A stretch of 35,579 nucleotides of DNA. It comes from Planctomycetales bacterium (GTDB taxonomy: Bacteria; Planctomycetota; SBBH01). The notes under the pieces are model-generated. The model did no database searches and was not told where the DNA came from. It saw nothing but the letters and a program-made list of their open reading frames with translations. A program made the position numbers and the translations under genes. The stretch lies in assembly GCA_005239795.1 (NCBI GenBank), contig SBBH01000113.1:1-35579 (forward strand), written 5' to 3'. Shown here one piece after another: positions 6,913 through 31,910 of this stretch (its first letter is position 1; each line of letters opens with the position of its first letter).

Positions 6913-7260
6913 TCACCCTTTCTGCAGCTTCAAGACGAGCCGAGCCAAGTCCTCCTCAATCTCCTTCTGACGCGTCTGGATCCCTTTGAAAAGCTGCGGC
7001 GCGCCGGCGTTTCCTTCTTCCGGCCTCTTTTTCGCGGTCTCCTGGAGCCATGTCTGGGCCGACTCCTCGACGCGGCTCATCTTGCGCAAGGCCTTCCGAA
7101 GGCTCTCAGCGGGGGTTTCCCCCTCATCCTTGGCGAACGGCTCTTCTTCAGCAACAGCGCCCGTGAAAGCCAACAACGCAACAATGGCACTGCACGAAAT
7201 GCGAAATGCGAAATGCGAAATGCGCCGGCGAGACCATGCGTCCTCTTGCGCATGACGCAT
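6913..7260 (-). CDS. Small exported coiled-coil protein (possibly the N-terminal part of a longer protein continuing through TGA 6913-6915)
   Basis: ORF track 6913..7305. I prefer ATG 7260 (MRHAQEDAWSRRRISHFAFRISCSAIVALLAFTGAVA/EEE, signal-peptide-like), which avoids a 23-nt overlap with the upstream gene. The N-terminal codons are encoded by heptad repeats. Confidence 0.5.
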   Translation of the reverse strand: MRHAQEDAWSRRRISHFAFRISCSAIVALLAFTGAVAEEEPFAKDEGETPAESLRKALRKMSRVEESAQTWLQETAKKRPEEGNAGAPQLFKGIQTRQKEIEEDLARLVLKLQKG

Positions 7261-7278
7261 GACGCATGACGCATGACG
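7196..7278. repeat. Heptad array pair: GAAATGC x4 (7196-7223), 27-nt spacer, CATGACG x4 (7251-7278)
   Basis: Read directly; both arrays are perfect 4-unit tandem repeats. The arms are only about 5/7 complementary per unit. The pair lies between the stop at 7283 and the signal-peptide region of the next gene. Confidence 0.85.
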
Positions 7279-7282
7279 GTTT

Positions 7283-9652
7283 CTATCGCTGTTCTTGATA
7301 CACATTGAGCCTCCAATCGTTCCCGAGCTGGCGGATCCGCGCCTGATCCTTCATCAAACGCTCAAGCGCGGCGCGCTGGTCCACAGTGAGCGCCGGGATC
7401 TCCCGGACTTGCCCCCGCAGCTTTTCCACGCGGGCGTTCAAATCCCTCTGTAAATTCCAGAGAAGCCTCACCTCGTCGACAGAACGCACCAGCGGCATCT
7501 CCATATCTCCCGTCGACGCCATCGGACGGGGGGCGGGACGCTCCCTCTCGGCGTCGAGGCGCCCGAGAAGCGTCTTCAACCCCTCCCGCATCTGGCCGAG
7601 AAGACCCAAGACTTCCGATTCGATATCGACCAGCGCCGCGGTGATCTCAGAACGCATCAAGCATGCCCGGATCTCTTCTATCTTTCCGGCCGCCTCCCCG
7701 GCGGCCCAGGCGTAGACGACCGACTTCCATTGTGGATTATCGAGCTTCTTCTGAAGCCCGCGGGCCTCCTCCACAAGGAGCCCCTCATCGACCACCAGGG
7801 TCCGGATCTCTTCCTGTTCCCAGACCCCGAGATCCCCCCCTTTCTTCAGATCCTCCCAGATCCCCTCGGTCCTATGCTTGACGGCCTCCTGTCCCGCAAT
7901 CAGCCGATCGAGATCCCCTTGAAGGCTCGAGAGCGTCACCTTGGCCTGCTCCGTCGCATACTGCCTCTGCTTGTCGCGCACGGCGGCGGCGGCATCCTCC
8001 AGGTATTTCAAGGCGCGCTGAGCCTCCCAAAGGCCCGAGTCGAGGTACTCCTCACGGAAAAGCCCTTCGACGAGAAACATCTGATCAGCCGCCTTCTGGA
8101 TCTGGCGGGCGGCTTCCTGCGAAAGATCCCGGTCGAGCGCGAGCGCCTCGGCCACACGCTTGGCTTCCCGGGCCGCCTCTTCCTGCGCTCGACGCAGGCG
8201 CTCCAGCTTCTGTCGGTCTTCGGCGCCAAGGCTCCCCCGCTCCAGGCGCTCGATCTCTTCGCGCGCCTCGGCCAAAAGTTTCAAGGCCTGCTTCTGATGG
8301 CCGGGAGCGTCGATCTGGGAGCCCGAATCCTCCTGCATGGACTGGCGGGCCTTCTGCATCTCGTCGGCGGCGGTCGAGATCCGCGAAGAGGCCGCCCCGG
8401 CCTTGCTCTTCTGGGCGTCGGCCGCTAGGGCCCGCGCCTCCTTCTCGAGCGCCTCCTGGCGGCGAGCCGCATCAGCGCCGGCTTCCGGAGGTTTTCCCGC
8501 CTCGTCCGGACCCGGCTGGGAGGCCGAAGTGCCAGGTTTCCCTTGCGGCCCGGGCGACGAGGAAGGGCTGGACGATCCCGATTTTGACGCGGACGCGCCG
8601 GAAGGTTTAGACAGCGAGGCGGCGCGCGCCTGGGCGATCGCCTGATCAAGAGTCGCGATCATCTGCTCAAGATTCTTTTCGGCATGTGCCTGGCTTTTTC
8701 CAGCCTGCGCACCGTCTCCAGCGCGGAGCGCCTCGGCCGCCTGCTCCATCGCCGCGGCCGCGGCGGCCGCATCCTTCCCGGCCTGTGCCAATGCCGGATC
8801 GGCCGGGGGGGTCGCTTCAGCCTGATTCTCCCTGGCGCCCGGGGCGCCCGGCTCGCCTCCAGCCGACCCTGTGAGCTCGCGGGCGAACTGGGCTGTTTCA
8901 CGCCCCAGGTTCGCCTGCGGCAAAGCTTGAGCCTGGGGACTGGATCCCTCCGACCCCTTGGATTCCTGAGGAGCTTCGCCGGGCTTCTCCTGTCCTCTAG
9001 CGGCAGGGCCGCCGAGCCGCTTCTGATTTTCCAGAATCTCCCGCGCCTTGTTCCGGGCCTCTTCAAGCGCCCCGGCCCTCAACATCCCCTCCTGGGCGGC
9101 CGCGAGAGCGTCGAGCCGGCGCTTGATCTCGCGCACGTCGGCCGGGACCGCTCGATCGAGGATGCTCTGCCCCTCCTCGATCACCTTCCGTTCCTTCGCC
9201 GAAAGATCCGCGATCGCGCGGGCGGCGTCTGCGAGCGACTTTTCGCGCTCGCGGACTGCCTCCAGCCGCGCCTCAAGCGTCAGCGCCTCCAGGATCTGGC
9301 GGAGGCTCTCACGCACGGCGTCGGCGCTGGACGCCGCCCCGGTGAAATCCTGCTCTTCGAGGGCGCGCAGGACCTCGTCCATCTCGACCCCGATCCACTC
9401 TTGTTCGAGGCGCGCGAGCGCCCGCTCGAGCCTCGCGCGCTTGTCCGCCTCCTCAGGTTTGGCGGCGTACTTATCCACGAGGCACCTCAGGGCCTCCGTG
9501 AGATGGTCAAAGCGCTCCCTGGCGGCGGCCTGACGGCGCCGATGCCGTGCGCCGTCAGGCCCGGCCACCACCCAGGAGACCGCCACCAAGGCCGCGATCA
9601 CCCCTCTTTTGAACGACCCTCGCGCCAGACGGGTTCTGAATTTTTGCTTCAC
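7283..9652 (-). CDS. Large membrane-anchored coiled-coil protein (low-complexity A/E/Q/R-rich)
   Basis: 789-aa ORF. N-terminal basic stretch plus TM (GVIAALVAVSWVVAG), then long heptad-like helical sequence. The GTG start at 9652 overlaps the upstream TGA (GTGA). Confidence 0.7.
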   Translation of the reverse strand: MKQKFRTRLARGSFKRGVIAALVAVSWVVAGPDGARHRRRQAAARERFDHLTEALRCLVDKYAAKPEEADKRARLERALARLEQEWIGVEMDEVLRALEEQDFTGAASSADAVRESLRQILEALTLEARLEAVREREKSLADAARAIADLSAKERKVIEEGQSILDRAVPADVREIKRRLDALAAAQEGMLRAGALEEARNKAREILENQKRLGGPAARGQEKPGEAPQESKGSEGSSPQAQALPQANLGRETAQFARELTGSAGGEPGAPGARENQAEATPPADPALAQAGKDAAAAAAAMEQAAEALRAGDGAQAGKSQAHAEKNLEQMIATLDQAIAQARAASLSKPSGASASKSGSSSPSSSPGPQGKPGTSASQPGPDEAGKPPEAGADAARRQEALEKEARALAADAQKSKAGAASSRISTAADEMQKARQSMQEDSGSQIDAPGHQKQALKLLAEAREEIERLERGSLGAEDRQKLERLRRAQEEAAREAKRVAEALALDRDLSQEAARQIQKAADQMFLVEGLFREEYLDSGLWEAQRALKYLEDAAAAVRDKQRQYATEQAKVTLSSLQGDLDRLIAGQEAVKHRTEGIWEDLKKGGDLGVWEQEEIRTLVVDEGLLVEEARGLQKKLDNPQWKSVVYAWAAGEAAGKIEEIRACLMRSEITAALVDIESEVLGLLGQMREGLKTLLGRLDAERERPAPRPMASTGDMEMPLVRSVDEVRLLWNLQRDLNARVEKLRGQVREIPALTVDQRAALERLMKDQARIRQLGNDWRLNVYQEQR

Positions 9653-13598: not shown

Positions 13599-14051
13599 AT
13601 GCGCATCGCAAAGCAGTTGTCAATCTTCCTCATCAACCAGCCGGGAAGACTGGCCGCCGTGTCGGCGAGCCTGGCCAAGGAGAAGATCAACATCACGGCC
13701 CTGACCGTCATGGACAGCACGGAGCACGGCGTGTTGCGCCTGGTGGCGGAAGAGCCCGAACGAGCCTTGAAGGTGCTCGAGAAAAACGGCTGTTCGGTGA
13801 CCCAGACCGATATTCTGCTTCTTGAACTTCCCAATCGGCCGGGGGCATTCGCCTCGGTGGCTAAAATCCTCGCCGAGTCCCACATCAACATCGACTATGC
13901 CTACTGCACGTCGGGGGCCCCCGGCGGCAAGACCACCGCCATCTTCAAGGTCCCCTTCATCGAGAAGGCGATCAAGATCCTGGCGGGGAACAGCCGCAGG
14001 CCCGAACACGACGCGGCAGTCCCCAAAAGCCAGCGGGCGGCGCACCGGTAG
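13599..14051 (+). CDS. ACT-domain (tandem ACT) small-molecule-binding protein
   Basis: MRIAKQLSIFLINQPGRLAAVSASLAKEKINITAL.. and LLLELPNRPGAFASVAKILAESHINIDYAY are two ACT-like beta-alpha-beta units. AGGAG lies 8 nt upstream of ATG 13599, so the ORF-track GTG 13566 is trimmed. Confidence 0.8.
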   Translation: MRIAKQLSIFLINQPGRLAAVSASLAKEKINITALTVMDSTEHGVLRLVAEEPERALKVLEKNGCSVTQTDILLLELPNRPGAFASVAKILAESHINIDYAYCTSGAPGGKTTAIFKVPFIEKAIKILAGNSRRPEHDAAVPKSQRAAHR

Positions 14052-14145
14052 CAGCAAATAAAGCCCCTTTTCTAACGGGGGGCGAGGGAGACTGGGAGAC
14101 GAGGCGAAGAGGCCCTGCCCATTCTGATCGTTCCTTGTCCGCGTC

Positions 14146-14172
14146 CCCGGGCTACCCCCGGGCGTTCTTTTT
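14146..14172 (+). terminator. Putative intrinsic terminator of the ACT gene
   Basis: CCCGGG (14146-51) / loop CTACC / CCCGGG (14157-62), followed by CGTTCTTTTT. Confidence 0.45.
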
Positions 14173-14174
14173 CC

Positions 14175-14180
14175 TATAAT
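14175..14180 (+). promoter_or_regulatory. Perfect -10 hexamer TATAAT upstream of the tRNA
   Basis: TATAAT ends 14 nt before tRNA position 1. No convincing -35 is seen (CTACCC at the 17-nt spacing). Confidence 0.4.
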
Positions 14181-14194
14181 TCCCCAACTTCGGA

Positions 14195-14268
14195 GGCGGG
14201 GTAGCTCAGTCGGTTAGAGCGAGGGTTTCATAAGCCCTAGGTCGCCGGTTCGAGTCCGGCCTCCGCCA
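14195..14268 (+). tRNA. tRNA with CAT anticodon (elongator tRNA-Met, or tRNA-Ile2 if C34 is lysidinylated)
   Basis: Manual cloverleaf. Acceptor GGCGGGG/CTCCGCC (one G-U). D arm GCTC-AGTCGGTTA-GAGC. Anticodon stem AGGGT/GCCCT with loop TTCATAA. Variable AGGTC. T arm GCCGG-TTCGAGT-CCGGC. Discriminator A. CCA is not encoded. Confidence 0.9.
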
Positions 14269-14305
14269 TTTTCGCGCATCGCGCTTCCAGCGCGAACGCG
14301 AAAAA
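14269..14305. other. Perfect nested palindrome immediately 3' of the tRNA
   Basis: TTTCGCG-CA-TCGCGC-TTCCA-GCGCGA-A-CGCGAAA. The T-run and A-run are part of the stem, so it is not a canonical U-tailed terminator on either strand. Confidence 0.6.
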
Positions 14306-14306
14306 T

Positions 14307-14412
14307 AGAACAGGAGAGGGTAGAAAGTAGAAAGGAGAAAGTAGAGATCTCCTGGGAATGACAAGAGGACACCCTCTCCTACGGTCTACTGTTCTCCTTT
14401 CTCCTCTCTCCC
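14307..14412. repeat. Heptad array pair: purine-rich GTAGAAA-type x4 (14320-14347) and a pyrimidine-rich TTCTCCT-type arm (about 14375-14411)
   Basis: Read directly: GTAGAAA GTAGAAA GGAGAAA GTAGAGA, then ..ACCCTCTCCTACGGTCTACTGTTCTCCTTTCTCCTCTCTCC. GGAGAGGGT (14312-20) pairs perfectly with ACCCTCTCC (14371-79). Confidence 0.7.
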
Positions 14413-14462
14413 AAGAGCCAAGTTTCGCGTATCGTCCACCTACACACCTTCGGTGTTACGGT

Positions 14463-14610
14463 GGATCCGCCGGAGCGAACAAAGTAAGCGTAGGCGGACT
14501 CGCCGCGGTAGGTGTCACAGGCAGACACGACGTCGCGGCTTGCGCCTTTCCGCCTACATCACGTCGTGATTCCAGCGGATCCGCCGGAGCGGCAAAGCCG
14601 CAAAGGCGGA
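14463..14610. repeat. Two homologous stem-loops sharing a 15-nt perfect direct repeat GGATCCGCCGGAGCG (14463-77 and 14577-91)
   Basis: Each copy closes TCCGCC...GGCGGA (14466-98; 14580-610). Between them lie nested stems GTAGGCGGA/TCCGCCTAC, GCCGCG/CGCGGC, GTGTC/GACAC and the 8-bp pair CACGACGT/ACGTCGTG. Confidence 0.6.
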
Positions 14611-14743
14611 GCATCTGGCCCACGCTTCGCGAAATGGGCAACAAAGCACTGAAATATCGAGTGGACCATGTGGAGCGTTTCTCGTCTCTACGCAATCTAT
14701 GCGCCATTGCGAAGTGTCCTGCGCCATCATTTCGTGGGATAGC

Positions 14744-15418
14744 ATGAGATCGATGCCGGAACCGGAGCGCGATTTCCAACGAGAGCGCACGCGGATGGTG
14801 GCAACACAGATCGCCGCGCGGGGCGTAAAGGATCCCCGGGTCCTGGCGGCGATGAAACGCGTCCCACGGGAGCGGTTTCTCCTGCTGGAAGATCGCGGCC
14901 TGGCCCATGAGGACCACGCCGTCGCGATCGGCCGGGGACAGACGCTCTCCCAGCCCTACATGGTCGCGAAGATGACGGAGGAGCTTTGCCTGACGGGTTC
15001 CGAACGGGTCTTGGAGATCGGGACCGGGTCGGGGTACCAGACCGCGATCCTGGCGGAGCTCGCCGCCGAAATCTTCACCGTCGAGCGGATCGAAGAGCTG
15101 TCCTTAAGGGCGCGCCATACCCTCGAGGAGCTCGGCTACCGGAACATCCGTTTCCGCGTGGGGGACGGCTCTCAAGGTTGGGGCGAATTCGCCCCTTACG
15201 AACGGATCCTTGTCACAGCGGGGGCGCCGGAACTTCCCCCATCGCTCGTCGCCCAACTCGCCCCCGGGGGGATTCTCGCCATTCCCGTCGGCGACGAGCG
15301 TTCGCAGATACTCACGATCGTCTCAAAAACCGCCGACGGCCGGATTGTGCAATCGCGCTCGACTCTCTGCACGTTCGTGAAGCTGATCGGACAGGAAGGG
15401 TGGACCGCGGAAAAATAA
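14744..15418 (+). CDS. pcm: Protein-L-isoaspartate O-methyltransferase
   Basis: RTRMVATQIAARGVKDPRVLAAMKRVPRERFL, VLEIGTGSGYQTAILA (SAM motif I), ILVTAGAPELP. The ORF-track start 14699 is trimmed to ATG 14744 (ATG 14753 is also possible). Confidence 0.9.
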   Translation: MRSMPEPERDFQRERTRMVATQIAARGVKDPRVLAAMKRVPRERFLLLEDRGLAHEDHAVAIGRGQTLSQPYMVAKMTEELCLTGSERVLEIGTGSGYQTAILAELAAEIFTVERIEELSLRARHTLEELGYRNIRFRVGDGSQGWGEFAPYERILVTAGAPELPPSLVAQLAPGGILAIPVGDERSQILTIVSKTADGRIVQSRSTLCTFVKLIGQEGWTAEK

Positions 15419-15486
15419 TTCAAGAATCCGTTGAACAAAACGCCCCTCCGCCGCACCTAGAGAGAGGGGAATGTGACCAGGGAATC

Positions 15487-15939
15487 ATGGGAAACGCCAG
15501 CGACCTCGACGCGCTTGTCAACGGACTCCTACCCCGCCTCTACACCACGGCGCACTGGATGGCGCGTCCCCCCATCCGGCCCGAGGATGCGGTCCAGGAG
15601 ACCCTGATGCACTTCATTCGGTCGCACCGCCAGGATCCCGCGCGGATCCGCGACCCGCTGGGCTGGTGCCTGAGCGTCCTGATCCGCGAATGCCGGCGCC
15701 GGCCGAGGGAATCCTCTCTGCCGACCGGCGACATCCTTTCCCCCGCAGCAGACCCGGCCCAAGAGGCGGCGGATCGCGAACGGGACCGGATCCTCCACGA
15801 GGCGCTCGCCGGGCTTCCCGACGACGAGCGCGATCCGATCGGCCTGCACGTGTTCGGAGGGATGACGATCCGACAGGCGTCCGAGGCGCTCGGGGTCCCC
15901 TCCGCCACCGTCCACCACCGGCATCCGCGTCGGATTTGA
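15487..15939 (+). CDS. ECF-type sigma-70 family RNA polymerase sigma factor
   Basis: Region 2-like EDAVQETLMHFIR and region 4-like LPDDERDPIGLHVFGGMTIRQASEALGVPSATV. ORF 14986..15939 overlaps pcm, so it is trimmed to ATG 15487 (MGNASDL..). Confidence 0.8.
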   Translation: MGNASDLDALVNGLLPRLYTTAHWMARPPIRPEDAVQETLMHFIRSHRQDPARIRDPLGWCLSVLIRECRRRPRESSLPTGDILSPAADPAQEAADRERDRILHEALAGLPDDERDPIGLHVFGGMTIRQASEALGVPSATVHHRHPRRI

Positions 15940-15946
15940 GCAATTT

Positions 15947-16489: not shown

Positions 16490-16582
16490 GTTGATGCGGC
16501 TGAGACGATCTACAAAAATCTTGATGCTCTCGGCTGGCAAGAGCAATCGGCTTCCCGATGCCTTGCCGAGGAACACCTGTCG

Positions 16583-18692: not shown

Positions 18693-18698
18693 ACGAAA

Positions 18699-21495: not shown

Positions 21496-21537
21496 CCTCG
21501 GTATAACCGGGAAGGCCGGAGAAGGTTCCCTCAAAAA

Positions 21538-24075: not shown

Positions 24076-24100
24076 CACATCCTTCATATCGACAGGGAAC

Positions 24101-24149
24101 TCATGAGTCATGAGAAATGAGTGACGAATCTCGATCGACGAACGACGTC
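24101..24149. repeat. Degenerate phased heptad tract (TCATGAG TCATGAG AAATGAG TGACGAA TCTCGAT CGACGAA CGACGTC)
   Basis: Read directly. Lies in the spacer between the 118-aa ORF and the large secreted protein gene. Confidence 0.5.
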
Positions 24150-24151
24150 CG

Positions 24152-24508
24152 TTATGCGGAGACATCCAGAGACAGTCCCAGATCAGGGATCGTCTGCGTC
24201 CAGCGCGAGCGGGGAACGACCCGGAGCTTGCGCCGTTTGCCGCGCAGGTCGGGTTCATGGTCCGCGCGATTGGCCAGGGGCGTACGCGAGCGCTCGGCCA
24301 CCAGGATCGGTAGATCCGGCCGCGACGTCACAAGCGACGCCAGGGACCGATCGGGCTCCGGCGTGGCGGGGGACTCCTGCCTCATCTGTCGAGCAAGGGC
24401 CTGCGGGGCTAGCGCCGCCTCAGCGTCCGGAGCCGGCAGGGCCGACGAAACAGCCGTGGCGGCCAGAAGAGGCTCGCGCAGGGCAGAGACCTGCATCTCG
24501 CCGGACAT
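24152..24508 (-). CDS. Hypothetical 118-aa protein
   Basis: Strong GC3 bias in this frame. ATG lies 3 nt after the upstream stop. No recognisable motif, and it does not resemble FliS. Confidence 0.45.
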   Translation of the reverse strand: MSGEMQVSALREPLLAATAVSSALPAPDAEAALAPQALARQMRQESPATPEPDRSLASLVTSRPDLPILVAERSRTPLANRADHEPDLRGKRRKLRVVPRSRWTQTIPDLGLSLDVSA

Positions 24509-24511
24509 GGA

Positions 24512-26530
24512 TCACCCCAGCTGATCCGTGAAGGACCCGATCGCGGACGCCCTCAGATGTTTGGCCAGGATCTCCTCGACCAGCTCCGTGAACTCTCGTT
24601 CGCTGACAGGGTCATCCTTCAGACGGTCGCCTAGGAAGCGCAGCCGCCCGGTCTGGCGGTCCGTCGAAAGTTCCAGGATCTTCGCGACCCGCGTGAGGGC
24701 CCCCTCCGGACCGATCAGGAGATCGCGCACCCCGGCGCGCTCCCGAGTCAGGGCCTTCCGGAAGAGATCCGCATCGAAGTGGACCAAGCCGTCCGCCTCG
24801 TCGACAATGCCGATTGACTCCAAGGAGTTGGCCGGCGTGCGCGGCGCGGCAATGCGGTCGAAGACACGGCTCAGCCCCTGGCGCAGATGGGTCACGAGAA
24901 CCTCCAACTGAAGCTCGTGGATGGTCAGGCGCTTGGGGTCCCGCTCGGCCTGGACGCCGACAGCGGTGAGCTGGGGATTGTCCTCCACCTCAGAGCCGAT
25001 CTCCTGGCGGATGCGGCTGACGGTGGGCTCCTCGTCGAAAATCCCTCCGCGCACGAGAAAACCATTCAGGAGACCCAATGTCTTGTTGTACTGGTCGATG
25101 AACCGCGAGATCTGGTCGACCAAGGGATCGAAAAAGCGGTCCACCGTCACCGTGCTCTTCCCCTCGCCCAGAAGCGTCAGGCGAACCGACGGGATCGCCC
25201 CGTCCACTGTGTTGGACGGTGACTTCTTCTCCTGTCCGTCGACAGTGAACGCCGCGTCCCGGGAAGCCACAAGCAGCGTCTTGGGGACCAGCTCGAGGTT
25301 GGCATCGCGCGTCAAAAGGCCGATCTCCTGAAGAATCCCATCTGGATCCTCGAATTCCAGTGTCACGTCGGCCGCCGGCGCTGTGATGACCAAGCGGTTT
25401 CCCTCCAGGCGCGCCCTAATCCCAAGACGGGAAACGCCCCCATCCAAAGTAAAATCGAAATCGCGGTCTTCTGAGATGTCGAGGCGGCCGTTGTAGTTCA
25501 AGTCCTCTCCCGTATCGAGGACCCCGTCGCCATCCTCATCTTCTGCCGTGTCGAGGACACCGTTCCCGTTGGCGTCCTCACCGTGGTTCAAGGTCCGGCT
25601 GAAGTTCCGGTCTTCCGCGTTGTTGAGGCGGCCGTCTTCGTTGACGTCCTCCCCAAAGTTGATCCGGCGCATGATTGCGCCCAGGCCGTCGGTCTCCTGA
25701 ATCAGGATGACGACTCCATTAATCGAAAATTCTCCCAAAAGGTCGAGCGCTGCCGCGCCGTTGCCGACGGGATCGGAAACGATCGACGCCCCCGAGGCCA
25801 GCTCCAGGACCGACACCGCCGACGTCTCCAGGCCCTCGGCGAAGGCGCCTGACGGAAGGGGGCTTGCCGAAAGCAGATCGCCGTCTCCCACGCGGACGCG
25901 GCGTCCCTCGAAGAGTGCGTCATCCTGAATCTCGCGCAAACGACTCAAAAGCGATGTCAAGCTCTCCTCCAAGCGCGGGATCTCGAACCGGCGGGAGTCG
26001 GCGACAGGCCCCTGCAATTCCCGCAGGGCCTGGAGGATCCCGTCGCGGTTCGCCTCGAGGACCTCTCTGCGCGCCTGCTCCACCCTCAAGCGCGAGGCGA
26101 AAGCGTCGAAAACCGCGAACTGCGGCAGGATCCGGCGCCCCTGTCCGAAAAATATGGCCGATTGGGCCAGGAAAGCGCGGCGCACGTCGCTCACGAAGGC
26201 GAGCTCCTTGAGAAGCGTCGTGCGGCCCGCGGCGTCCTCGAGCACCGTCGTCGTCTCGCCGCCCGTCGCGATGACCCGCCCGTCGGAGCTGATCGCGGTG
26301 TGGATCGTGACGCGCTGGCCCGTGACGGAGAAATCCTGCCCGTGGCGCTTGGCCGCCAGGCGCTGGAAGGCGGTGTGCTGGCGCTCGAAGGCGTAGACCT
26401 GAATGATGCTGTTGCTCTTGCGAGCCGAGGGAGGGCGGCTCGCGCCCGATTCGCCAATGGGAACCCGGTAGCCGATCGGCCCGGCGAGCTCCGCTTTTTC
26501 CTCGTCCCCCCGGCGGCGCTTGACGCGCAA
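24512..26530 (-). CDS. FliD C-terminal-domain-like (filament-cap-like) protein with acidic Ca-binding-type repeats
   Basis: AAFTVDGQEKKSPSNTVDGAIPSVRLTLLGEGKSTVTVDRFFDPLVDQISRFIDQYNKTL..IGIVDEADGLVHFDADLFRKAL parallels the FliD core and C-terminal region. Insert DVNEDGRLNNAEDRN..DANGNGVLDTAEDEDGDGVLDTGEDLNYNGRLDISED. TTG start with GGGGGG SD-like run 4 nt upstream. Confidence 0.6.
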   Translation of the reverse strand: MRVKRRRGDEEKAELAGPIGYRVPIGESGASRPPSARKSNSIIQVYAFERQHTAFQRLAAKRHGQDFSVTGQRVTIHTAISSDGRVIATGGETTTVLEDAAGRTTLLKELAFVSDVRRAFLAQSAIFFGQGRRILPQFAVFDAFASRLRVEQARREVLEANRDGILQALRELQGPVADSRRFEIPRLEESLTSLLSRLREIQDDALFEGRRVRVGDGDLLSASPLPSGAFAEGLETSAVSVLELASGASIVSDPVGNGAAALDLLGEFSINGVVILIQETDGLGAIMRRINFGEDVNEDGRLNNAEDRNFSRTLNHGEDANGNGVLDTAEDEDGDGVLDTGEDLNYNGRLDISEDRDFDFTLDGGVSRLGIRARLEGNRLVITAPAADVTLEFEDPDGILQEIGLLTRDANLELVPKTLLVASRDAAFTVDGQEKKSPSNTVDGAIPSVRLTLLGEGKSTVTVDRFFDPLVDQISRFIDQYNKTLGLLNGFLVRGGIFDEEPTVSRIRQEIGSEVEDNPQLTAVGVQAERDPKRLTIHELQLEVLVTHLRQGLSRVFDRIAAPRTPANSLESIGIVDEADGLVHFDADLFRKALTRERAGVRDLLIGPEGALTRVAKILELSTDRQTGRLRFLGDRLKDDPVSEREFTELVEEILAKHLRASAIGSFTDQLG

Positions 26531-26612
26531 GTATCCCCCCTTTTTCCCTCAAGCCCGGGGGGAAAAGGACCGATGGAAGGGGGGATTTAAAGACGTCTTA
26601 AAACGGTCTTAC

Positions 26613-26689
26613 CCCGCATCGAACCCTCTGTGAGCCCCCCTCACAGACCTTCCAGCGGCTAAACCCGCCCTCGATGCGGGTTTTTTATT
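26613..26689 (+). terminator. Multi-stem RNA element ending in a U-tract (orphan intrinsic-terminator-like structure; candidate sRNA 3' end or leader attenuator)
   Basis: Perfect 10-bp outer stem CCCGCATCGA (26613-22) / TCGATGCGGG (26671-80), then TTTTTTATT. Inner hairpins CTGTGAG-CCCCC-CTCACAG (26628-46) and GCGG-CTAAAC-CCGC (26655-68). Confidence 0.5.
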
Positions 26690-26742
26690 CCCCCTCAAAA
26701 ATTACTCTATGCCATCTCCTCCCCTTGTCAAGATAACACCCC

Positions 26743-26771
26743 TTCACACTAGATCATAAATCAATTATTTA
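26743..26771 (+). promoter_or_regulatory. Candidate sigma70-type promoter for pcp in an AT-rich patch
   Basis: TTCACA (26743-48), 17 nt spacer, TATTTA (26766-71), about 65 nt upstream of ATG 26836. Weak -10 match. Confidence 0.3.
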
Positions 26772-26835
26772 AAAGTTTTGTGTTATTTTAAGAAGAAAAA
26801 CATCGACGCGAACATTTTTCACCTTGGACGGTTTC

Positions 26836-27627
26836 ATGAAAGAGCGATATTGTCGTCTCCTTATGTGGCGCCGAAAAATATTTCTGGCGGCCCTGGCCGG
26901 ACTCCTGACGGGGTTGGTTTTCCTTCTCCCGGCAGCCCCAGAGGAAAAGACTCCTGCGTCTGCGGAACATCCCCCCCGGCTTCTGCTGACCGGATTCGCC
27001 CCGTTCGGCGGAAAACCCCGCAACGTCTCCTGGGACGCAATCGCTCCCCTGGATGGAAAGAGCGTGGACGGCGTCAAGGTGCATTGCCTAGAGCTCCCCG
27101 TGGAATGGGGCAAGATCCAGGAGCCCCTCTCCAAGGCAATGGACGCCTGGCAACCGCAAGGGGTCCTCTGCCTGGGTGAAGGGCTCTCCAATACGATCTC
27201 CATCGAGACCGTGGCGAAAAACGAGGTAAAGCCGAACCCAGACAACGCCCGGCGGCTGCCGGGACGCAAGGTCGTCCGGGCGGACGCTCCTGAGAGCTAC
27301 GCGACGGCCCTTCCCGTGCAGAAAATCCAAGAAGGGCTTGAAGAGAAGGAAACGGGGTTCCGGGTTGTTCGTTCCAAGAGCGCCGGCCGTTACCTCTGCG
27401 AGGAATGCTTTTTCACACTCATGCACCTGGGGACGATGCGCTTCGCCGCAGGCCAGCCGCACGGCTTCGTCCATCTCCCCCCCTATCCCAGCCAGAGCAC
27501 GCCAAATCAGCAAAAGGCGCACGAAACAAAAGTCCGCGACGTGGTGCTTGTAATCATCCGGGTCATGATCCAAGAGCATCCCGACCTTTTCGCGCTTCCG
27601 GCCGAAACAGCCGCCCAGCCGCAGTAG
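26836..27627 (+). CDS. pcp: Pyroglutamyl-peptidase I (peptidase C15) with an N-terminal hydrophobic signal/anchor
   Basis: LLLTGFAPFGG, LCLGEG, SAGRYLCEECFF (catalytic Cys context), HGFVHLP. N-terminus MKERYCRLLMWRRKIFLAALAGLLTGLVFLLPA. ORF-track TTG 26824 is trimmed to ATG 26836. Confidence 0.85.
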   Translation: MKERYCRLLMWRRKIFLAALAGLLTGLVFLLPAAPEEKTPASAEHPPRLLLTGFAPFGGKPRNVSWDAIAPLDGKSVDGVKVHCLELPVEWGKIQEPLSKAMDAWQPQGVLCLGEGLSNTISIETVAKNEVKPNPDNARRLPGRKVVRADAPESYATALPVQKIQEGLEEKETGFRVVRSKSAGRYLCEECFFTLMHLGTMRFAAGQPHGFVHLPPYPSQSTPNQQKAHETKVRDVVLVIIRVMIQEHPDLFALPAETAAQPQ

Positions 27628-28446
27628 ATGCCGAAGCTTCCCCTCAACCGCCGCTCCTTCCGGCAGACGCTCCAACGCTACGACAGCGCCGTGGAGCGGA
27701 AGATCCGGGATTTGAACGCCGCTCGAGGGGAGCCGGCGACGCGCCGGGAGGTGAATGCCTTTTTCAAGCGGGAGCTTGCGCGCCTCGGACGCTTCGAGCA
27801 CGCCATCGACCTCGGGTGCAACACCGGCGATTTTGCACGCGCGGTGCTGGCCCCCCGGTGCCGGGAGTTGATCCTCGTCGATTTTTCGGCGAAGGCGCTC
27901 GCCCGCGCCAGGGCCACAGTCACTTCTCCCAAAGGTGGAAATCATCCGCCGTCCGTGACTCGTGGATCGTGGATCGTGGATCGCGAACAGTCACTGCGCC
28001 GGCGAACCACGCGCCACGAACCACGAACCACAAAAAGCCTCTCGTCTATTCCGCTGGCGGTCTCTTTCCTGCAAGCCGACCTCACCCGCGACTGGGCCAA
28101 GATCGCCTCGGTGGGGCCGTTCGATCTTGTGACTCTTTGCGAGGTGATCCAGCATATTCCCGATGCAGTGAAGCGGCGCCTTGTCTTTGCCCGCGCGGCG
28201 CGCCTCGTCAAGCGCGGCGGGCTTTTCCTCTTCTCGCACTATGCGCGGGTGCCCGGAGAACCGGCCGAAGGATTCTTCCACTCGCCGCATTACCGACATC
28301 TCCTCTACTACCACTCTGCGCAGGCGGGCCAGATCGAGCGATGGGCGAATCGGGACGGACTCCTCATCCTCAGGCACGCGCGCCTCGGCCCCGTCAACGC
28401 CTTCCTCATGAAGAAGGGGCCGTCCGGAAATAACTGCTGTGTCTGA
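27628..28446 (+). CDS. Class I SAM-dependent methyltransferase carrying an approximately 40-aa repeat-encoded insertion
   Basis: Motif I AIDLGCNTGDF, motif II LILVDFS, then VSFLQADL and FDLVTLCEVIQHI, GGLFLFS. The ATG directly abuts the pcp stop (TAGATG). Confidence 0.8.
   Translation: MPKLPLNRRSFRQTLQRYDSAVERKIRDLNAARGEPATRREVNAFFKRELARLGRFEHAIDLGCNTGDFARAVLAPRCRELILVDFSAKALARARATVTSPKGGNHPPSVTRGSWIVDREQSLRRRTTRHEPRTTKSLSSIPLAVSFLQADLTRDWAKIASVGPFDLVTLCEVIQHIPDAVKRRLVFARAARLVKRGGLFLFSHYARVPGEPAEGFFHSPHYRHLLYYHSAQAGQIERWANRDGLLILRHARLGPVNAFLMKKGPSGNNCCV
27954..28030. repeat. Heptad array pair inside the methyltransferase CDS: CGTGACT CGTGGAT x3 (27954-81), 21-nt spacer, CGAACCA CGCGCCA CGAACCA CGAACCA (28003-30)
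   Basis: Read directly; 11 phased units. About 23/29 positions are complementary. Translated in frame as ..SVTRGSWIVDREQSLRRRTTRHEPRTT.. Confidence 0.85.
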
Positions 28447-28477
28447 TAGAATCGATCGATTATGTTCGCGCGAGTCC

Positions 28478-29275
28478 TTAGCTTCCTGTCGAGTGATACC
28501 TTCGGATTCCGGCGCGCCAGACGAGGCCCGCCATCAGCGCAAAAACCACGGCGACCACCGGCGTCAAAAGCGCGACCTGGCGCGTCCCGTCTCCCCAGCG
28601 CTCTCCCGCGATCAAAAGCCCTGCCGGGTAGTATCCGATGAACGCGAAGGGGATCACAGTTTGCAGGAGGATCCGGACAGCCGGGTGGAAGATCTCGATC
28701 GGATATCGCCCGAAAACGATGCAGTTGAAGACCGGGGGCTGTATCCCCAGGCGGTCCTCGAACCAGAAGTTGACACAGGTCAACACAAGAAAAACCGAGG
28801 TGATGATGACGCCCCCTGAGAGAGCTAGAAGCGCCGCTGCCGCCGCGTGACCCACCGTCCAATCGACAGGGAGCCTGGCCCCCGACCAGGCGACCAGGGC
28901 CCCGCCGACCATGATCTCGGTCACGGCCAGCGGATTGAAGCTGTGCAGGAGCACCTGGAGGAACGGCGAGAACGGCCGCAACAGCACCTGGTCGAACCGC
29001 CCCTCGATCAAGTACTCCTCGCTGAAGCGATAAAGGCTCTCGGCGAAGAATTCGAGGACCCCCACCGAGATCATCGAGAATCCGTAGATGAAAAGGATCG
29101 CGTCCCGCGGCCATCCGCCGATCGCTGTCACCCCCGCCCCGGCAAAGATGCCGGCCAGGAACGACAACCCCGCCGCTGAAACCATGAGATCCCCCAACAC
29201 CTGGGCCAGGAAATCCCATCGATAGGCCAGCCGTGCCTTGAGGTACTGCACAAGATACAGCCAGGCGATCCTCAA
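28478..29275 (-). CDS. ABC-2-type transporter permease (second permease)
   Basis: 265-aa multi-TM ORF. TTG start with AAGGAAGGA about 9 nt upstream. Paired with a paralogous permease and an ATPase. Confidence 0.75.
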   Translation of the reverse strand: MRIAWLYLVQYLKARLAYRWDFLAQVLGDLMVSAAGLSFLAGIFAGAGVTAIGGWPRDAILFIYGFSMISVGVLEFFAESLYRFSEEYLIEGRFDQVLLRPFSPFLQVLLHSFNPLAVTEIMVGGALVAWSGARLPVDWTVGHAAAAALLALSGGVIITSVFLVLTCVNFWFEDRLGIQPPVFNCIVFGRYPIEIFHPAVRILLQTVIPFAFIGYYPAGLLIAGERWGDGTRQVALLTPVVAVVFALMAGLVWRAGIRRYHSTGS

Positions 29276-29293
29276 GCCGCCTGTCCTTCCTTA

Positions 29294-29328
29294 CTCATGT
29301 CCCATGTCTCATGACCCATGACTCATGA
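29294..29328. repeat. Single heptad tract CTCATGT CCCATGT CTCATGA CCCATGA CTCATGA in the permease-permease spacer
   Basis: Read directly. 14-nt super-period. Each unit contains the self-complementary CATG, giving five AUGs on either strand. Confidence 0.8.
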
Positions 29329-29334
29329 CTTTCC

Positions 29335-30210
29335 TCATCCCCCCTGTATCGTGAGCCGCCGGATCGCCCGATGCCAACCCCAGATCCCCGTTCCCCACAG
29401 GAGGAGGCTCCAGAACGCCTGCCCAGCAAGCGCCGCCGGAACCGCCAGATCCGGGATCTTACCTAGGTAGACGAGCACCGGAACCTGGCTGATCCCGGCA
29501 AACGGGAGAAGCTCGAGAACCCGCGCCGCGGCTGGCGGGAAGAAGCTCAAGGGAATGAGAAGCCCCGAGAGAAGCTGGATCCCCACATGCTTGGCCCAGA
29601 TGAGCCCCTCCACGTTCTTCAGAGAAAAAGAAGCCAGGGCTACCAGGAAGTTGATACCGCTCATCAAGACGAGAGACAACGTGACGCTCACCAGGACCGC
29701 CAGGGCCTGCCGGCCGTCCGCCGGGAGGGGAATGCCGAACACCGCCCCCACCACCACGGCGATCGGAAGGGTAAAAAAAACAAGGCGGAAGGCCGATTCC
29801 CCCACGGCGCCAACGAGCTTGGCGACGGGGTAGTTGACGGGCCTCAGGAGCTGTGCGCCGATCCGGCCCTGGCGCACCTCGCCCGCCACCTCGCGGTCGA
29901 TGTTGTTAAAATAGAACGACCGCAGAATCCAGCCGACCGCGACGAAATTCATCATCTCGCCGACGCCAAAATCTCCCAGCCGCTCGGCTGGGCCGTAGAT
30001 CCCCTTCCACAAGAAGGAATAGGCCGCAATGTAGACGCTGTAGGTGAGAATGCCGGTGACGTAGCGCAGCCGGTAGGCCAGAATCTGCAAAAAAGCGATG
30101 CGGGCAAAAGCCCAATAGGACCGAAATGGGAAATGGGAAACGGGACATGAGATTGGCTTGCCCATCAGATTTTTCATTTCGCATTTCTCATTTCGCATTT
30201 CGGACGTCAC
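29335..30210 (-). CDS. ABC-2-type transporter permease (first permease)
   Basis: Multi-TM ORF (YRLRYVTGILTYSVYIAAYSFLWKGIY..). GTG 30210 overlaps the ATPase stop (GTGA). The alternative ATG 30165 lies in the loop of the heptad hairpin. Confidence 0.75.
   Translation of the reverse strand: MTSEMRNEKCEMKNLMGKPISCPVSHFPFRSYWAFARIAFLQILAYRLRYVTGILTYSVYIAAYSFLWKGIYGPAERLGDFGVGEMMNFVAVGWILRSFYFNNIDREVAGEVRQGRIGAQLLRPVNYPVAKLVGAVGESAFRLVFFTLPIAVVVGAVFGIPLPADGRQALAVLVSVTLSLVLMSGINFLVALASFSLKNVEGLIWAKHVGIQLLSGLLIPLSFFPPAAARVLELLPFAGISQVPVLVYLGKIPDLAVPAALAGQAFWSLLLWGTGIWGWHRAIRRLTIQGG
30122..30202. repeat. Heptad array pair: CGAAATG GGAAATG GGAAACG GGACATG (30122-49), 25-nt spacer, CATTTCG CATTTCT CATTTCG CATTTCG (30175-202)
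   Basis: Read directly. About 23/28 positions pair, including one G-U. Confidence 0.85.
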
Positions 30211-31202
30211 CGCCGTTCCTTTCCTTCGAGATAAATCTTTCTGATGATCTCCTCGATCGGTGTGGGAGCGACCGATAGGTCCGTCACGGGAAAGCGCGCC
30301 AGAAGCTCCCGCATCAGGGCCGGCACCCGGCGCCGCTCGACCTGGGCACGGAAGCGGTTGGCGCCCAGGGGCTCCCAGGCCGGAGTCTCGTCATCCGAGA
30401 AAGCCACCAGATCCCCGGGCGCCACCGCCTGGGCGAAATCGACGATGATCCGGGCCGCGCGGTCGTGACGGCGGCGGATCTCGGCCAGGGCTCCATCATA
30501 GAGGAGCCGGCCGTGGTCGATGATCATGACGCGCGGGCAGATCTCCTCGATATCCACCAGGTCGTGCGTCGTGAGGATCATCGTGGTCCCGAGGCGTTTG
30601 TTCGCCTCCTTGAGGAAGCTCCGCACCGCGGCCTTCGCGACGACATCGAGGCCGATCGTCGGCTCGTCCAGGAACAGGATTTTAGGCTCATGGATCAGGG
30701 CCGCCGCCAGGTCACAGCGCATCCGCTCGCCCAGCGAAAGCTTGCGCACGGGCGTCCGAAGATAGGCCCCGATGCCTAAGAGCTCGTCGAAGAAGGCGAG
30801 CCGCTTGCGATAGATATCCTTCGGCACGCCGTAGATCTCGGCCAAAAGCGTCAGAGATTCGGCGACCGCCAGGTCCCACCAGAGCCCGGTGCGCTGGCCA
30901 AAGACCGCGCCGATCGTGGCGACATAGCGGCGCCGCTCCTTCCAGGGGACGAATCCCCCCACCTCGACTGTCCCGGACGTCGGAACAAGGATCCCCGTAA
31001 GAACTTTCAGCGTCGTCGACTTCCCGGCGCCGTTGGGGCCGATGTAACCGACCATTTCGCCGGGCTTCACATGAAAACCGATCCCGTCCACCGCGCGCAC
31101 GGCCCGGGTCTGCCTGTGGAAAAGATCGCACACAGCTCCTAAGAGCCCCTCGCGGCGGTCGAAAACCTGGAATTCCTTGACGAGGTTCTCGACCCGGATC
31201 AT
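30207..31202 (-). CDS. ABC transporter ATP-binding protein
   Basis: Walker A GPNGAGKST, signature LSLGERMR, Walker B ILFLDEPT, H-loop TTHD. Confidence 0.9.
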   Translation of the reverse strand: MIRVENLVKEFQVFDRREGLLGAVCDLFHRQTRAVRAVDGIGFHVKPGEMVGYIGPNGAGKSTTLKVLTGILVPTSGTVEVGGFVPWKERRRYVATIGAVFGQRTGLWWDLAVAESLTLLAEIYGVPKDIYRKRLAFFDELLGIGAYLRTPVRKLSLGERMRCDLAAALIHEPKILFLDEPTIGLDVVAKAAVRSFLKEANKRLGTTMILTTHDLVDIEEICPRVMIIDHGRLLYDGALAEIRRRHDRAARIIVDFAQAVAPGDLVAFSDDETPAWEPLGANRFRAQVERRRVPALMRELLARFPVTDLSVAPTPIEEIIRKIYLEGKERR

Positions 31203-31234
31203 GGGGGAAGAATACAGAAGCCGGGAGCCGGGAG

Positions 31235-31807
31235 TCAGGGGATGTTGAGAGGCGTTAGAGGGAATCGGGCGAGTACCGTGTGGACGGCCCCTTCAGTGCC
31301 GAGCTCCGACTGGTAGAGAATCACCCCCTCCACGCGGTGGGTCCCCCTGGGCGGCGGCGGTGTAGATAGGATCGTCCGCACGTCGACAGGCCGTCCCTTC
31401 CCCTGGAGGCGCGCCAAAGTCAGGTGCGCCGTAAAAAATCTCTCCTCCAAGGGGACGGGAAAAGGGGCAAGCGCCCCGCGCAAAACGTCAGCCAGCCGCG
31501 CCAAGCTCCCCTCGGGGTCCGCGAGCCCCAACCACAGAATGCGGGCGCGCGCCGGACTCGGGAAGGCCCCCCATCCCGCCGTCGACACGGAAAACGCCGG
31601 ACGCCCGGCGGCGGCCTTCGTGAGAACGAGCGTCATCGGAAGCACCTGCTCCCGAGCCACCTCGCCCAGGAACAACAGCGTCAGATGCACCGCTTCGGGC
31701 GCGGTCCAGCGGAATGCGGCGCCCCCCTGGCTTTTCAGGAGGCGCTGGGCCTGGGTGACGATCGATGAAACCGGAGGGACGAACTCGGCCGCAAGAAAGA
31801 CCCTCAT
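31235..31807 (-). CDS. thpR: RNA 2',3'-cyclic phosphodiesterase (2H phosphoesterase, ThpR/LigT family)
   Basis: Two H-x-T-x motifs: HLTLLFLG and HLTLARL. 190 aa. Confidence 0.8.
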   Translation of the reverse strand: MRVFLAAEFVPPVSSIVTQAQRLLKSQGGAAFRWTAPEAVHLTLLFLGEVAREQVLPMTLVLTKAAAGRPAFSVSTAGWGAFPSPARARILWLGLADPEGSLARLADVLRGALAPFPVPLEERFFTAHLTLARLQGKGRPVDVRTILSTPPPPRGTHRVEGVILYQSELGTEGAVHTVLARFPLTPLNIP

Positions 31808-31811
31808 TGCA

Positions 31812-31910
31812 CGAAATGAGAAATGGGAAACGGGAAATGAGAAAAAAACAGTGGCCGGCGATGCGACCGCCTCCGCATCTCACATTTCACATTCCTCATT
31901 TCACATTTCA
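31812..31910. repeat. Heptad array pair: CGAAATG AGAAATG GGAAACG GGAAATG (31812-39), 43-nt spacer, CATTTCA CATTCCT CATTTCA CATTTCA (31883-910)
   Basis: Read directly. About 22/28 positions are complementary. Begins 5 nt from the thpR ATG and ends 4 nt from the Rieske stop. Confidence 0.85.

Follow-up and report, generated by a model that had tools for sequence, protein, structure and literature searches.

Heptanucleotide repeats of the short tandemly repeated repetitive (STRR) type were reportedly described in cyanobacteria by Mazel et al. in 1990, and Vioque is said to have found, in 1997, that helix P12 of RNase P RNA carries STRR units on each of its two strands. Palindromic elements lying in frame in protein genes of Rickettsia (Rickettsia palindromic elements, RPE) were reportedly described by Ogata et al. 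in 2000. In many bacterial genomes, the long simple-sequence repeats reported most often are those with heptanucleotide units, which have been put down to slippage of the polymerase (summarised in PMC4679880). Direct repeats of the heptamer TAACTGA occur in Beggiatoaceae, cyanobacteria and Bacteroidetes (MacGregor 2015, PMC4679880). In Xanthomonas campestris and X. axonopodis, arrays of the heptamer GGGAATC form inverted pairs, 70-75 per genome (Rehm et al. 2015, PMC4692102). Geobacter metallireducens carries paired tandem sites of 7-9 nt on opposite strands, which were read as sites for IHF/HU or a global regulator; its class 3 has five tandem MTYCTGA units and eight pairs, one of them lying between proB and proA (Aklujkar et al. 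2009, PMC2700814). In the 5' untranslated region (UTR) of hmw in Haemophilus influenzae, an (ATCTTTC)n array is one arm of a long imperfect hairpin that is cleaved by RNase III and controls expression, and the array must be transcribed and folded for its repeat number to change (Rapun-Araiz et al. 2025, PMC12721329). Here we analyse ten elements, A to J, made of tandem 7-nt units in a stretch of 35,579 nt from a Planctomycetales bacterium (contig SBBH01000113.1 of assembly GCA_005239795.1; hereafter, the window). The reading that we prefer, and to which we give an even chance, is that they are STRR-like simple-sequence-repeat hairpins that arise and are homogenised by slippage and template switching and are tolerated only at gene ends, any effect at the RNA level being secondary. 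The class looks fast-evolving, probably selfish or mutational, and akin to the repeats known from Xanthomonas, Geobacter and cyanobacteria; it does not look like a new regulatory system.

An earlier note, made from the letters of the DNA alone, had listed ten sites with tandem heptads. Tandem Repeats Finder (TRF) reported period-7 arrays at every one of them, with F marginal. In our own lag-p self-match scan, period 7 had 13 arrays, periods 4-6 and 8-13 had none, and thirty dinucleotide shuffles gave 0.00 per period; period 14 appeared as a harmonic only, so that 7 was the only enriched period. The arrays thus have at least three copies of a 7-nt unit head to tail, in excess over other periods, as expected of the STRR type. 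The units in the window are GAAATGN, CATGASN, CGTGGWT, GTCCTGA, YGTTTGG and GTAGAAA. An inverted partner was found no more than 110 nt away for 12 of the 13 arms, compared with 4 of 74 when the arm was only reversed as a control. Eight loci have the arrangement array, spacer and inverted array, with spacers of 19-31 nt and an ungapped arm complementarity of 60-81%, far beyond chance, which bears out the inverted-repeat arms of the earlier note.

The elements were folded as RNA on both strands, with z-scores against shuffles. The predicted folds are long hairpins of 5-6-bp helices split by a 1x1 or 2x2 mismatch at each seventh position. For seven of the eight paired loci (A, C, D, E, G, I and J), one strand or both folded better than the shuffles (z from -3.2 to -6.5). 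The folds of B (z -1.3 / -2.2) and H (z -2.6) were weak, and F showed none (z -0.06).

Chance similarity or an assembly artefact, which we regard as barely credible, might be argued from F (TRF score 30, fold z about 0) and from the tendency of short-read assemblies to break at array loci. No array was found in the shuffles or at other periods, however, and another organism has a homologous array (contig L162, below). Moreover, a short-read contig (Logan, L081) from a separate data set equals window positions 30155-31867 exactly. It ends in the loops of I and J and reproduces one arm and part of the loop of both. Because of this exact match, the arrays are no assembly artefact of the window; L081 is identical to it where the two overlap, the contig spanning no whole array. 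Chance or artefact is refuted for 9 of the 10 loci.

The window has a G+C content of ~64%, and nearly all its genes from 7283 onward are on the minus strand. Two elements lie between convergent genes. Element A (7195-7278) consists of (CGAAATG)x4.3 at 7195-7224, a 24-nt centre and (CGCATGA)x4.3 at 7249-7278, with 100% matches in both arms in TRF, 73% complementarity between the arms and z of -3.2 / -4.2. Its stem repeats a 5-bp helix and a 2x2 mismatch every 7 nt, and the stop of a minus-strand ORF (open reading frame) follows at 7283. Element B (14307-14412; TRF 14320-14345 / 14392-14411) has a GTAGAAA/GGAGAAA arm and a TTCTCCT arm and lies between tRNA-Met (14195-14268, plus strand) and the point where gene 14456-14917, on the minus strand, stops; UAUUUUUC comes next after the element when the minus strand is read.

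The other eight are on the minus strand. Element C (18698-18783; TRF 18698-18729 / 18752-18777) reads (GTCCTGA)x4, GTCTGATG plus an 18-nt centre, and (ACTCAGC)x4. Its loop holds the RlmN stop and the GATase ATG (18749), which overlap as TGATG, and the first six GATase codons. Element D (19809-19976; z -4.2 / -3.7) has ~9 degenerate units per arm, of the CRAAACG type in the 5' arm and the YGTTTGG type in the 3' arm; TRF called 19809-19841 as degenerate, and calls at other periods reach 19874. It fills the gap from the thiolase stop (TAA, 19979-19981) to the RlmN start (GTG, 19804) and is followed by GUUUUC. Element E (21217-21299) is a degenerate heptad hairpin (TRF 21271-21299, 63% matches; z -6.5 on the minus strand). 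Degenerate arms are the left arm of E and both arms of D. E is preceded by the stop (~21309) of a 58-aa ORF that is conserved, and the thiolase ATG (21166) is ~50 nt downstream of it. Element F (24101-24149), unpaired and marginal, has ~3 units of TCATGAG (TRF 24101-24122, 3.1 copies, score 30) between the stop of a 118-aa gene (24152) and the start region of a 906-aa ORF.

Element G (27954-28031; TRF 27960-27983 / 28003-28031) reads (GTGGTTC)x4, a 19-nt centre and (GATCCAC)x3.4, has z of -4.8 on both strands, and stops 8 nt short of the ATG (27945) with which a 285-aa gene begins. Element H (29294-29330; TRF 29293-29330) is an unpaired run of GTCATGA/GTCATGG x5.4 between the stop of a first ABC-2 permease gene (29335) and the start of a second (TTG, 29275). 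Element I (30123-30202; TRF 30123-30149 / 30175-30202; z -4.5 / -5.1) reads (CGAAATG)x4, a 25-nt centre and (CCCATTT)x4. Element J (31813-31910; TRF 31813-31844 / 31876-31910; z -5.5 / -4.1) reads (TGAAATG)x5, a centre with a small GC hairpin and T7 (31868-31853), and (YCATTTC)x4.6; it is strictly intergenic, from the Rieske stop (31915) to the LigT ATG (31807). Many centres hold a GGAGG- or AGGA-like motif, often in a small apical GC hairpin (A 7225-7248, D 19877-19907, E 21251-21270 and J 31845-31875 in the window; L012 2210-2225, L036 7876-7890 and L037 5158-5181 in other loci). The motif could be a remnant of an ancestral ribosome-binding site or terminator, or a protein-binding loop.

The arrays make up 869 nt (2.4% of the window) and occupy 10 of its 26 junctions. 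All ten midpoints fall outside gene cores, that is, in 11.8% of the window (p about 5e-10; partly circular for C and I). The earlier note had the elements filling junctions between genes of the same strand. All ten do lie at gene boundaries, but A and B separate convergent genes, and because nearly all the genes of the window are on the minus strand, the predominance of same-strand junctions is uninformative: this position is the window default, not an enrichment. A close fit from stop to start was likewise claimed; it holds for D and J, but C and I overlap ORF ends in frame and E ends ~50 nt before the thiolase start.

Information on the origin of the arrays came from relatives. The nearest genome in the species collection is an uncultured Planctomycetales metagenome-assembled genome, with 84% identity in thiolase and a conserved gene order. 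Contigs of four relatives (L001/L168, L162/L167, L164 and L165), with proteins ~80% identical, were compared with the window; the genes that flank the elements are housekeeping genes and are syntenic in all four. The gap between thiolase and RlmN is 9-15 nt in the four relatives (L001, L162, L164, L165) but is occupied by the 168-nt D in the window. RlmN and GATase meet at TGATG or within 3 nt in L001, L164 and L165 compared with the 86-nt C in the window. The two permease genes abut (0 nt) in L168 where H sits, and L167 has at this junction a 69-nt insert of weak period-7 character by eye. ATPase and permease genes overlap by 4 nt in L167 and L168 at the junction of I. A plain GC hairpin takes the position of E in L001. 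Because the same junctions are overlapping or 9-15 nt long in these relatives, the arrays are lineage-specific derived insertions.

Two of the insertions lie in frame in conserved ORFs, the arrangement reportedly typical of RPE. In an alignment, permease orthologues start with MTA/G right where the ATPase gene stops. In the window, GTG-ACG-TCC (M-T-S) has been kept at 30210, in overlap with the stop of the ATPase (30207), and the whole hairpin I forms a contiguous open in-frame block after codon 3 and before R-S-Y-W-A-F-A-R. Compared with the 267-aa orthologues, the permease ORF with I has 24 additional codons (72 nt); by our own delimitation, the repeat-derived stretch is 26 codons (78 nt). 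A predicted permease peptide from the arms is EMRNEKCEMKNLMGKPISCPVSHFPF. In C, the 5' arm is read as the C-terminal tail of RlmN, and the 3' arm is a 39-nt (13-codon) in-frame insertion in GATase, between R6 and the conserved VVLIDNY. L162 has no other in-frame GATase start, so the 3' arm of C must be translated there. The suspicion that such stretches might be nothing but ordinary protein termini is therefore partly right, the arms of C being protein tails and I lying in frame. Their periodicity of 7 nt shows, however, that the arms of C and I were generated at the nucleotide level and are merely tolerated in frame. We rejected as a general rule that the ancestral TGATG is retained in the loop: this is true at C, but at I the ancestral GTGA overlap is upstream of the whole hairpin.

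L162 allowed a comparison of orthologous arrays at C. It carries (GTCCCGG)x4, GTCTGATG with a similar centre, and (ACGCGGY)x4. Both organisms have 4+4 units, and the changes recur in most units of an arm (GTCCTGA in the window to GTCCCGG in L162; ACTCAGC to ACGCGGC). Identity is 36/56 (64%) in the arms and 19/26 in the centre, and 0.50-0.52 at four-fold synonymous flanking sites; units within the C arms of the window are ~90% alike. Since unit changes recur across an arm whose units remain so alike, the comparison points to arms evolving in concert. The array of L162 folds no better than shuffles (z +1.06), and its pairing has been lost. Compensatory change between the two was considered and rejected: one U-A pair became C-G, one A-U became G.G, and L162 is unfolded.

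The elements are also related to each other. In all-against-all local alignments (99th percentile score of the null, 25), I and J scored 52, with a 29/31 arm stretch that includes the variant unit CCGTTTC and with the order X-X-A-X in both 5' arms. A scored 51 with I (27/28) and 44 with J. E and G, aligned over the whole element, scored 36, as did A and H, which have a unit and its lead-in in common; F and H scored 31. Of the two arms of A, one matches I and the second the unit of H. I and J have centres that are unrelated. Therefore, the claim that heptads differ between loci holds for most of them but not for I/J/A, E/G and A/H/F, which share arm sequence. Because loci share arm sequence, variant units and unit order, arms are copied or converted between loci, and the family is not purely one of structure without sequence.

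Such dispersed sharing is also what non-autonomous mobile elements would leave, and we weighed, as an improbable alternative, that the elements resemble MITEs (miniature inverted-repeat transposable elements), REPINs (paired repetitive extragenic palindromic, or REP, sequences) or RPEs, are moved by a transposase encoded elsewhere in the genome and then underwent heptad slippage. I is a contiguous insertion in a conserved ORF start, and A, C, D, I and J have common ends by eye (GAAA at 5', TTTCG(T)G at 3'). REP-type repeats are often inverted pairs and occur in Planctomycetes (PMC3733652). Against mobility, no transposase or integrase was found among the window ORFs scanned against Pfam. The arms act as inverted repeats, but no convincing target-site duplication was seen by eye, nor any consistent direct repeat flanking I, J, E and G, the ends of the elements being not exactly fixable. 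I and J have common arms but differing centres. The centre of C is the apparent ancestral stop/start with the first codons, so that its arms flank local sequence and form no single block with it. Most loci have private units, and GAAATGN arrays are absent from the contigs of the four relatives.

Elements of this class were also found elsewhere. In 80 loci from other genomes (1.27 Mb), period 7 was the commonest, with 61 arrays compared with 39, 23 and 31 at periods 6, 8 and 9, and 28 of the 61 had an inverted partner. About 1.8 Mb of non-redundant comparison loci contained 16-17 good pairs, in Planctomycetota, Acidobacteriota and two metagenome contigs, with arms of 3-8 units and centres of 3-65 nt that often hold a small GC hairpin. 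Many of these pairs span from a few nt past a stop to 5-20 nt before an ATG; four lie between divergent genes and one between convergent genes. The density of paired arrays in the window is ~24 times that in the comparison loci (8 pairs in 35.6 kb vs ~17 in 1.8 Mb). Strands in other genomes were called from G+C at the third codon position, which is ambiguous for antisense frames; the first and second positions were added, and the calls are still approximate. Metagenome matches with RlmN, among those listed, were generic (identity of 48% or less) and were used only as background sequence. In L164, 8690-8750 is a TGTTTGG/CGTTTGG array, the unit type of the D 3' arm. It is in a divergent intergenic region with an ACT-domain gene on one side and MauE on the other, and so is no orthologue of D.

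The GAAATGN unit was absent from the other 168 loci but matched 40 IMG/VR contigs. One phage-like contig, IMGVR_UViG_3300031867_000530 (L197 1-13983 and L173 1-7546; 61% G+C), has 31 period-7 arrays in ~21 kb. They belong to many families (GTGAAAT/GTGAGAT, CCCTTTT, GCTATCG, CTGCCTG, GGGTGTT, AAGTGAA), the J unit included. Some clusters exceed 200 nt, and the layout on the sense strand is a stop, (GGGAAAA)n, a short loop, (CATTTCA)n, a Shine-Dalgarno sequence and ATG. Copy-number polymorphism between two strains was seen directly here: at a junction with identical flanks and a 98% identical protein, L197 8095-8220 has 7+7 units and L210 7245-7310 has 4+~2.5. The unit GGGAAAA has changed in concert to GGGAGAA at this junction, the loop differs as well, and the arms pair weakly. 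A second junction also differs (L197 5875-5985 vs L210 9428-9536). This is direct evidence for hypervariability of the arrays in this class. At L197 8207-8250 (minus strand), GGACAGTATTGACCCGCG...CGCGGGTCAATACTGTCC forms a palindrome, perfect over 17 bp, directly upstream of a heptad array; it is identical in L210.

In the slippage and template-switching reading, an element consists of a short array of 7-nt units, a 19-31-nt centre and an array of the approximate reverse complement, added in one lineage at junctions that overlap or measure 0-15 nt in close relatives. Remodelling would take place at the DNA level, unit by unit, by slippage and by gene conversion within an arm, so that the units of an arm stay alike although their sequence drifts. 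The complementary arm would be built, and arms copied from locus to locus, by template switching or ectopic conversion. Purifying selection would then leave elements only at harmless sites: from stop to start, between convergent genes, or in frame in the first or last codons. Elements inside operons would be transcribed and able to fold into hairpins of 25-60 bp in which a mismatch recurs every 7 nt. Processing of the RNase III type, protection of 3' ends, termination or masking of a start would be secondary, locus-specific effects and not the reason for their existence. The slippage and template-switching mechanism, the neutrality and any RNA role are what we infer from the comparisons above.

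Several observations weigh against this reading. Slippage in this genome is itself deduced. All seven changed stem pairs between E and G still pair, and the five arm substitutions between I and J are structure-neutral. This retention of pairing hints at some constraint on it. Units recur within 35 kb (GAAATGN three times, CATGASN three times, CGTGGWT twice), which together with the order of variant units in I and J means that copying between loci is needed and that local slippage alone is insufficient. Neither simple transposition nor simple divergence explains near-identical arms around unrelated centres in I and J. At 7 of 8 loci, compared with 3.5 expected, ORFs that begin at an ATG inside the element extend as far as the downstream start or overlap it, which could reflect selection on translation. 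Finally, an automated measure showed no significant correlation of arm lengths across loci (Spearman 0.29, p 0.17).

The chief rival, which we think unlikely although it is the least unlikely of the alternatives, is that the elements are selected intercistronic RNA hairpins that serve as substrates of RNase III-type processing, as 3'-end protectors or as terminators. They would give cistrons differing stabilities, or hold back the next start until the upstream ribosome, or a small ORF initiated in the loop, opens the 3' arm. The strong predicted hairpins at seven of the eight paired loci agree with this, and so do the pairs of related elements. On the RNAalifold alignment, E and G share 27 pairs, of which two show compensatory AU-to-GC changes, five show one-sided changes and none is broken; I and J share 24 pairs with two wobble changes, and their other three substitutions are on the periodic mismatch columns. 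In a covariation test of E and G, based on two sequences only, 121 of 500 shuffles reached the observed value, so the signal was not significant. Against selected hairpins, the four relatives do without elements at the same junctions, the sole orthologous copy (in L162) does not pair, and F and H are unpaired.

Strand asymmetry gave no better support. There are 17 G-U pairs on the mRNA-sense strand vs 3, which might suggest selection on RNA. We rejected this evidence since the sense strand is G+T-rich throughout and the better-folding strand elsewhere is as often antisense; the bias follows base composition, not the sense strand. C itself folds better antisense (-41.8 vs -28.7 kcal/mol), and similar pairs lie between divergent genes in other genomes. 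The evidence for selection on RNA structure is weak. The earlier note had taken complementary arms as the pattern expected from selection on structure or from a templated mechanism. The complementarity stands; the unfolded array in L162 and the compositional origin of the G-U bias leave the case for selection on structure weak.

A role in termination would fit E, which replaces a plain GC hairpin at an operon end, J, with its terminator-like centre hairpin and T7, and the U-run after B. E is placed at an operon end because it follows the 58-aa ORF and lies ~50 nt before the thiolase ATG, which is preceded by TGTTATACT. A scan for consensus intrinsic terminators over 14000-32500 (A lying outside) detected no whole element, only the J centre hairpin with T7. 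For processing, the hmw 5' UTR is an experimental precedent (PMC12721329), and in silico the heptamer arrays likewise form an arm of a long imperfect predicted RNA hairpin next to a start codon.

For translation, small minus-strand ORFs that begin inside elements have a stop overlapping the downstream start in D (19801-19887, GTGA), G (27942-28031, ATGA), H (29272-29319, TTGA), J (31804-31914, ATGA) and E (21166-21246, TAATG). When the ORFs were begun at an ATG inside the element, the stop was on the next start in D, H, J and E, and the frame was that of the next gene in C, I and F; the small ORF of G reaches ATGA only from a GTG or TTG start. With ATG only, the pattern had p ~0.003 by our own Poisson-binomial arithmetic. 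With ATG, GTG and TTG starts, the null probability was 0.43-0.98 per locus, which is not significant. Among 7 cases from other genomes, only ~3 have a downstream frame that stays open across the 3' arm, so the pattern is not general. We therefore rejected small ORFs through the 3' arm as a designed feature. We also rejected equal unit numbers in the two arms as proof of coupling between them, given the correlation above and because most arms simply have 3-5 units.

A more speculative extension, which we hold to be a long shot, is that Planctomycetota, Acidobacteriota and their phages share self-extending hairpin repeats. Their arms would change units in step by an RNA-hairpin-dependent or template-switch process like that proposed for hmw. 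In operon copies, which would have a start codon in the loop or the 5' arm, translation through the 3' arm would hand ribosomes to the next gene. If so, ~100 nt could be inserted into a translationally coupled junction without polarity.

At the DNA level, the arrays might instead be protein-binding sites, iterated for a nucleoid-associated or regulatory protein; we consider this very improbable. Three 7-bp units make two helical turns, TRF reported periods 14 and 21 in B, C, H and I, the paired 3-5-unit sites of G. metallireducens were so read (PMC2700814), and other genomes have pairs in divergent promoter regions. The unit varies by locus, however, and one protein could not read all of them. 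Inverted-complement arms suit a hairpin better than a protein filament. Several copies lie in ORF ends or tight operon junctions, where transcriptional control is unexpected, and no candidate protein was identified.

The arrays have consequences for annotation because they shift or blur the choice of start codons. Longest-ORF calls run through them, as in thiolase, which has 440 aa here and 392 aa in relatives. In the regions 18755-19831 and 29335-30210 (minus strand), RlmN is called in the window at 320 aa and the permease at 287 aa, and these calls differ from the starts supported by orthologues. Short-read contigs L081, L163 and L166 and an end of L210 stop inside hairpin loops or arrays. 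In genomes rich in such elements, short-read assemblies will be systematically fragmented at operon junctions.

Other features of the window were noted in passing. At 21309-21485 (minus strand), thiolase and the 906-aa gene are separated by the small ORF of ~58 aa, which has no Pfam family. L001, L164 and L165 have conserved it, and gene calls in the last two give it 58 aa. TGTTATACT is conserved ~8 nt upstream of the thiolase start in the window (21167-21185), L001 (9975-10000), L164 and L165. It resembles an extended -10 box, so near the start codon that the thiolase mRNA may be leaderless or nearly so. The Rieske-domain ORF at 31915-33189 (minus strand) encodes 424 aa with the domain only at residues 328-412, compared with 101 aa for the orthologue in L167, L168 and L169; its long N-terminal part may be an over-extended ORF, a separate gene or a fused gene. 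An Rfam search of the window matched only tRNA and no family for any element. The sole RNA gene found was tRNA-Met (CAT), 39 nt upstream of B.

Heptanucleotide repeats are the commonest long simple-sequence repeats reported in many bacteria and have hardly been studied. The window offers a dense planctomycete case with many families and, together with relatives, shows that hairpins can be added exactly at overlapping stop/start junctions and in frame in ORF ends. If the elements are processed or couple translation, they would add to operon architecture in soil and aquatic phyla a layer that is widespread and has gone unannotated. If they do neither, they would offer a clean natural setting in which to study how structured DNA is built by slippage and template switching. 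The class is under-described and taxonomically broad, with effects on annotation and assembly; a new mechanism is not demonstrated.

How do the elements compare with known systems? The cyanobacterial STRRs resemble them in having several 7-nt unit families per genome, intergenic tandem arrays, and both arms of a helix reportedly extendable without loss of function. They are said to belong to heterocystous cyanobacteria and to have other units, and the array-spacer-inverted-array order is not known to be defining there. The elements are not STRRs in the strict sense of a cyanobacterial host and STRR1-3 units, since the closest relatives are Planctomycetota and the units are others. RPEs, too, are reportedly palindromic repeats in frame in conserved ORFs and presumably translated, as in I and C, but they are said to be single-family elements of 100-150 bp that have no heptad substructure and occur in unrelated hosts.

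REPs, bacterial interspersed mosaic elements (BIMEs), REPINs and GTAG/CGTC-tagged palindromes are likewise intergenic, dispersed, hairpin-forming and species-specific, at operon junctions and after genes, and often come as inverted dimers that make one larger hairpin (PMC3733652). A REP unit, however, is a palindrome of 20-40 bp with a conserved tag, present in hundreds of near-identical copies along with a REP-associated tyrosine transposase (RAYT). The arms here are tandem, non-palindromic heptads in three small subfamilies within 35 kb, and no RAYT was found among the window ORFs scanned against Pfam. Integron attC sites were rejected because the flanking genes are syntenic housekeeping genes and the window has no integrase, and CRISPR was rejected because the units are contiguous, with no spacers, and there are no cas genes.

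TAACTGA arrays have 2-6 units directly upstream of starts, and the intergenic regions of relatives are shorter and lack the repeats, as here. They consist of a single unit and are nearly always direct, with one inverted case among 170 sets (PMC4679880). The hmw array is likewise transcribed and forms a hairpin arm just upstream of a start codon, with a variable repeat number. Its partner arm, however, is non-repetitive and G-rich, it belongs to a single phase-variable virulence locus, and RNase III cleavage is experimental there compared with only predicted folds here (PMC12721329).

The earlier note had not recognised the architecture as a described element, but inverted heptamer pairs are known in Xanthomonas (PMC4692102) and paired tandem sites in G. 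metallireducens (PMC2700814). In the latter, 3-5 tandem units and an opposite-strand copy at a variable distance are species-specific and lie inside operons between same-strand genes, as in the window. A class there has a single consensus unit and numbers tens of copies; its description came with neither a comparison of orthologous junctions nor a folding analysis. The Xanthomonas pairs are close in form, and pairing of this type was found at eight of our loci: tandem 7-nt units, mostly intergenic, in close convergent pairs on opposite strands with a potential stem-loop. Array length varies there between species while the pair type is kept (PMC4692102). The differences are one G-rich G-quadruplex unit there vs many unit families and no G3 tract in any unit here, another phylum, and the in-frame placement in ORF ends and the contrast with tight junctions in relatives, which are unreported there. 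In the literature searched, no description of such an element in Planctomycetota or Acidobacteriota was found. None of the systems compared unites all that is seen here: many families of units, arms shared between loci, insertion where a stop and a start overlap, and in-frame insertion in ORFs.

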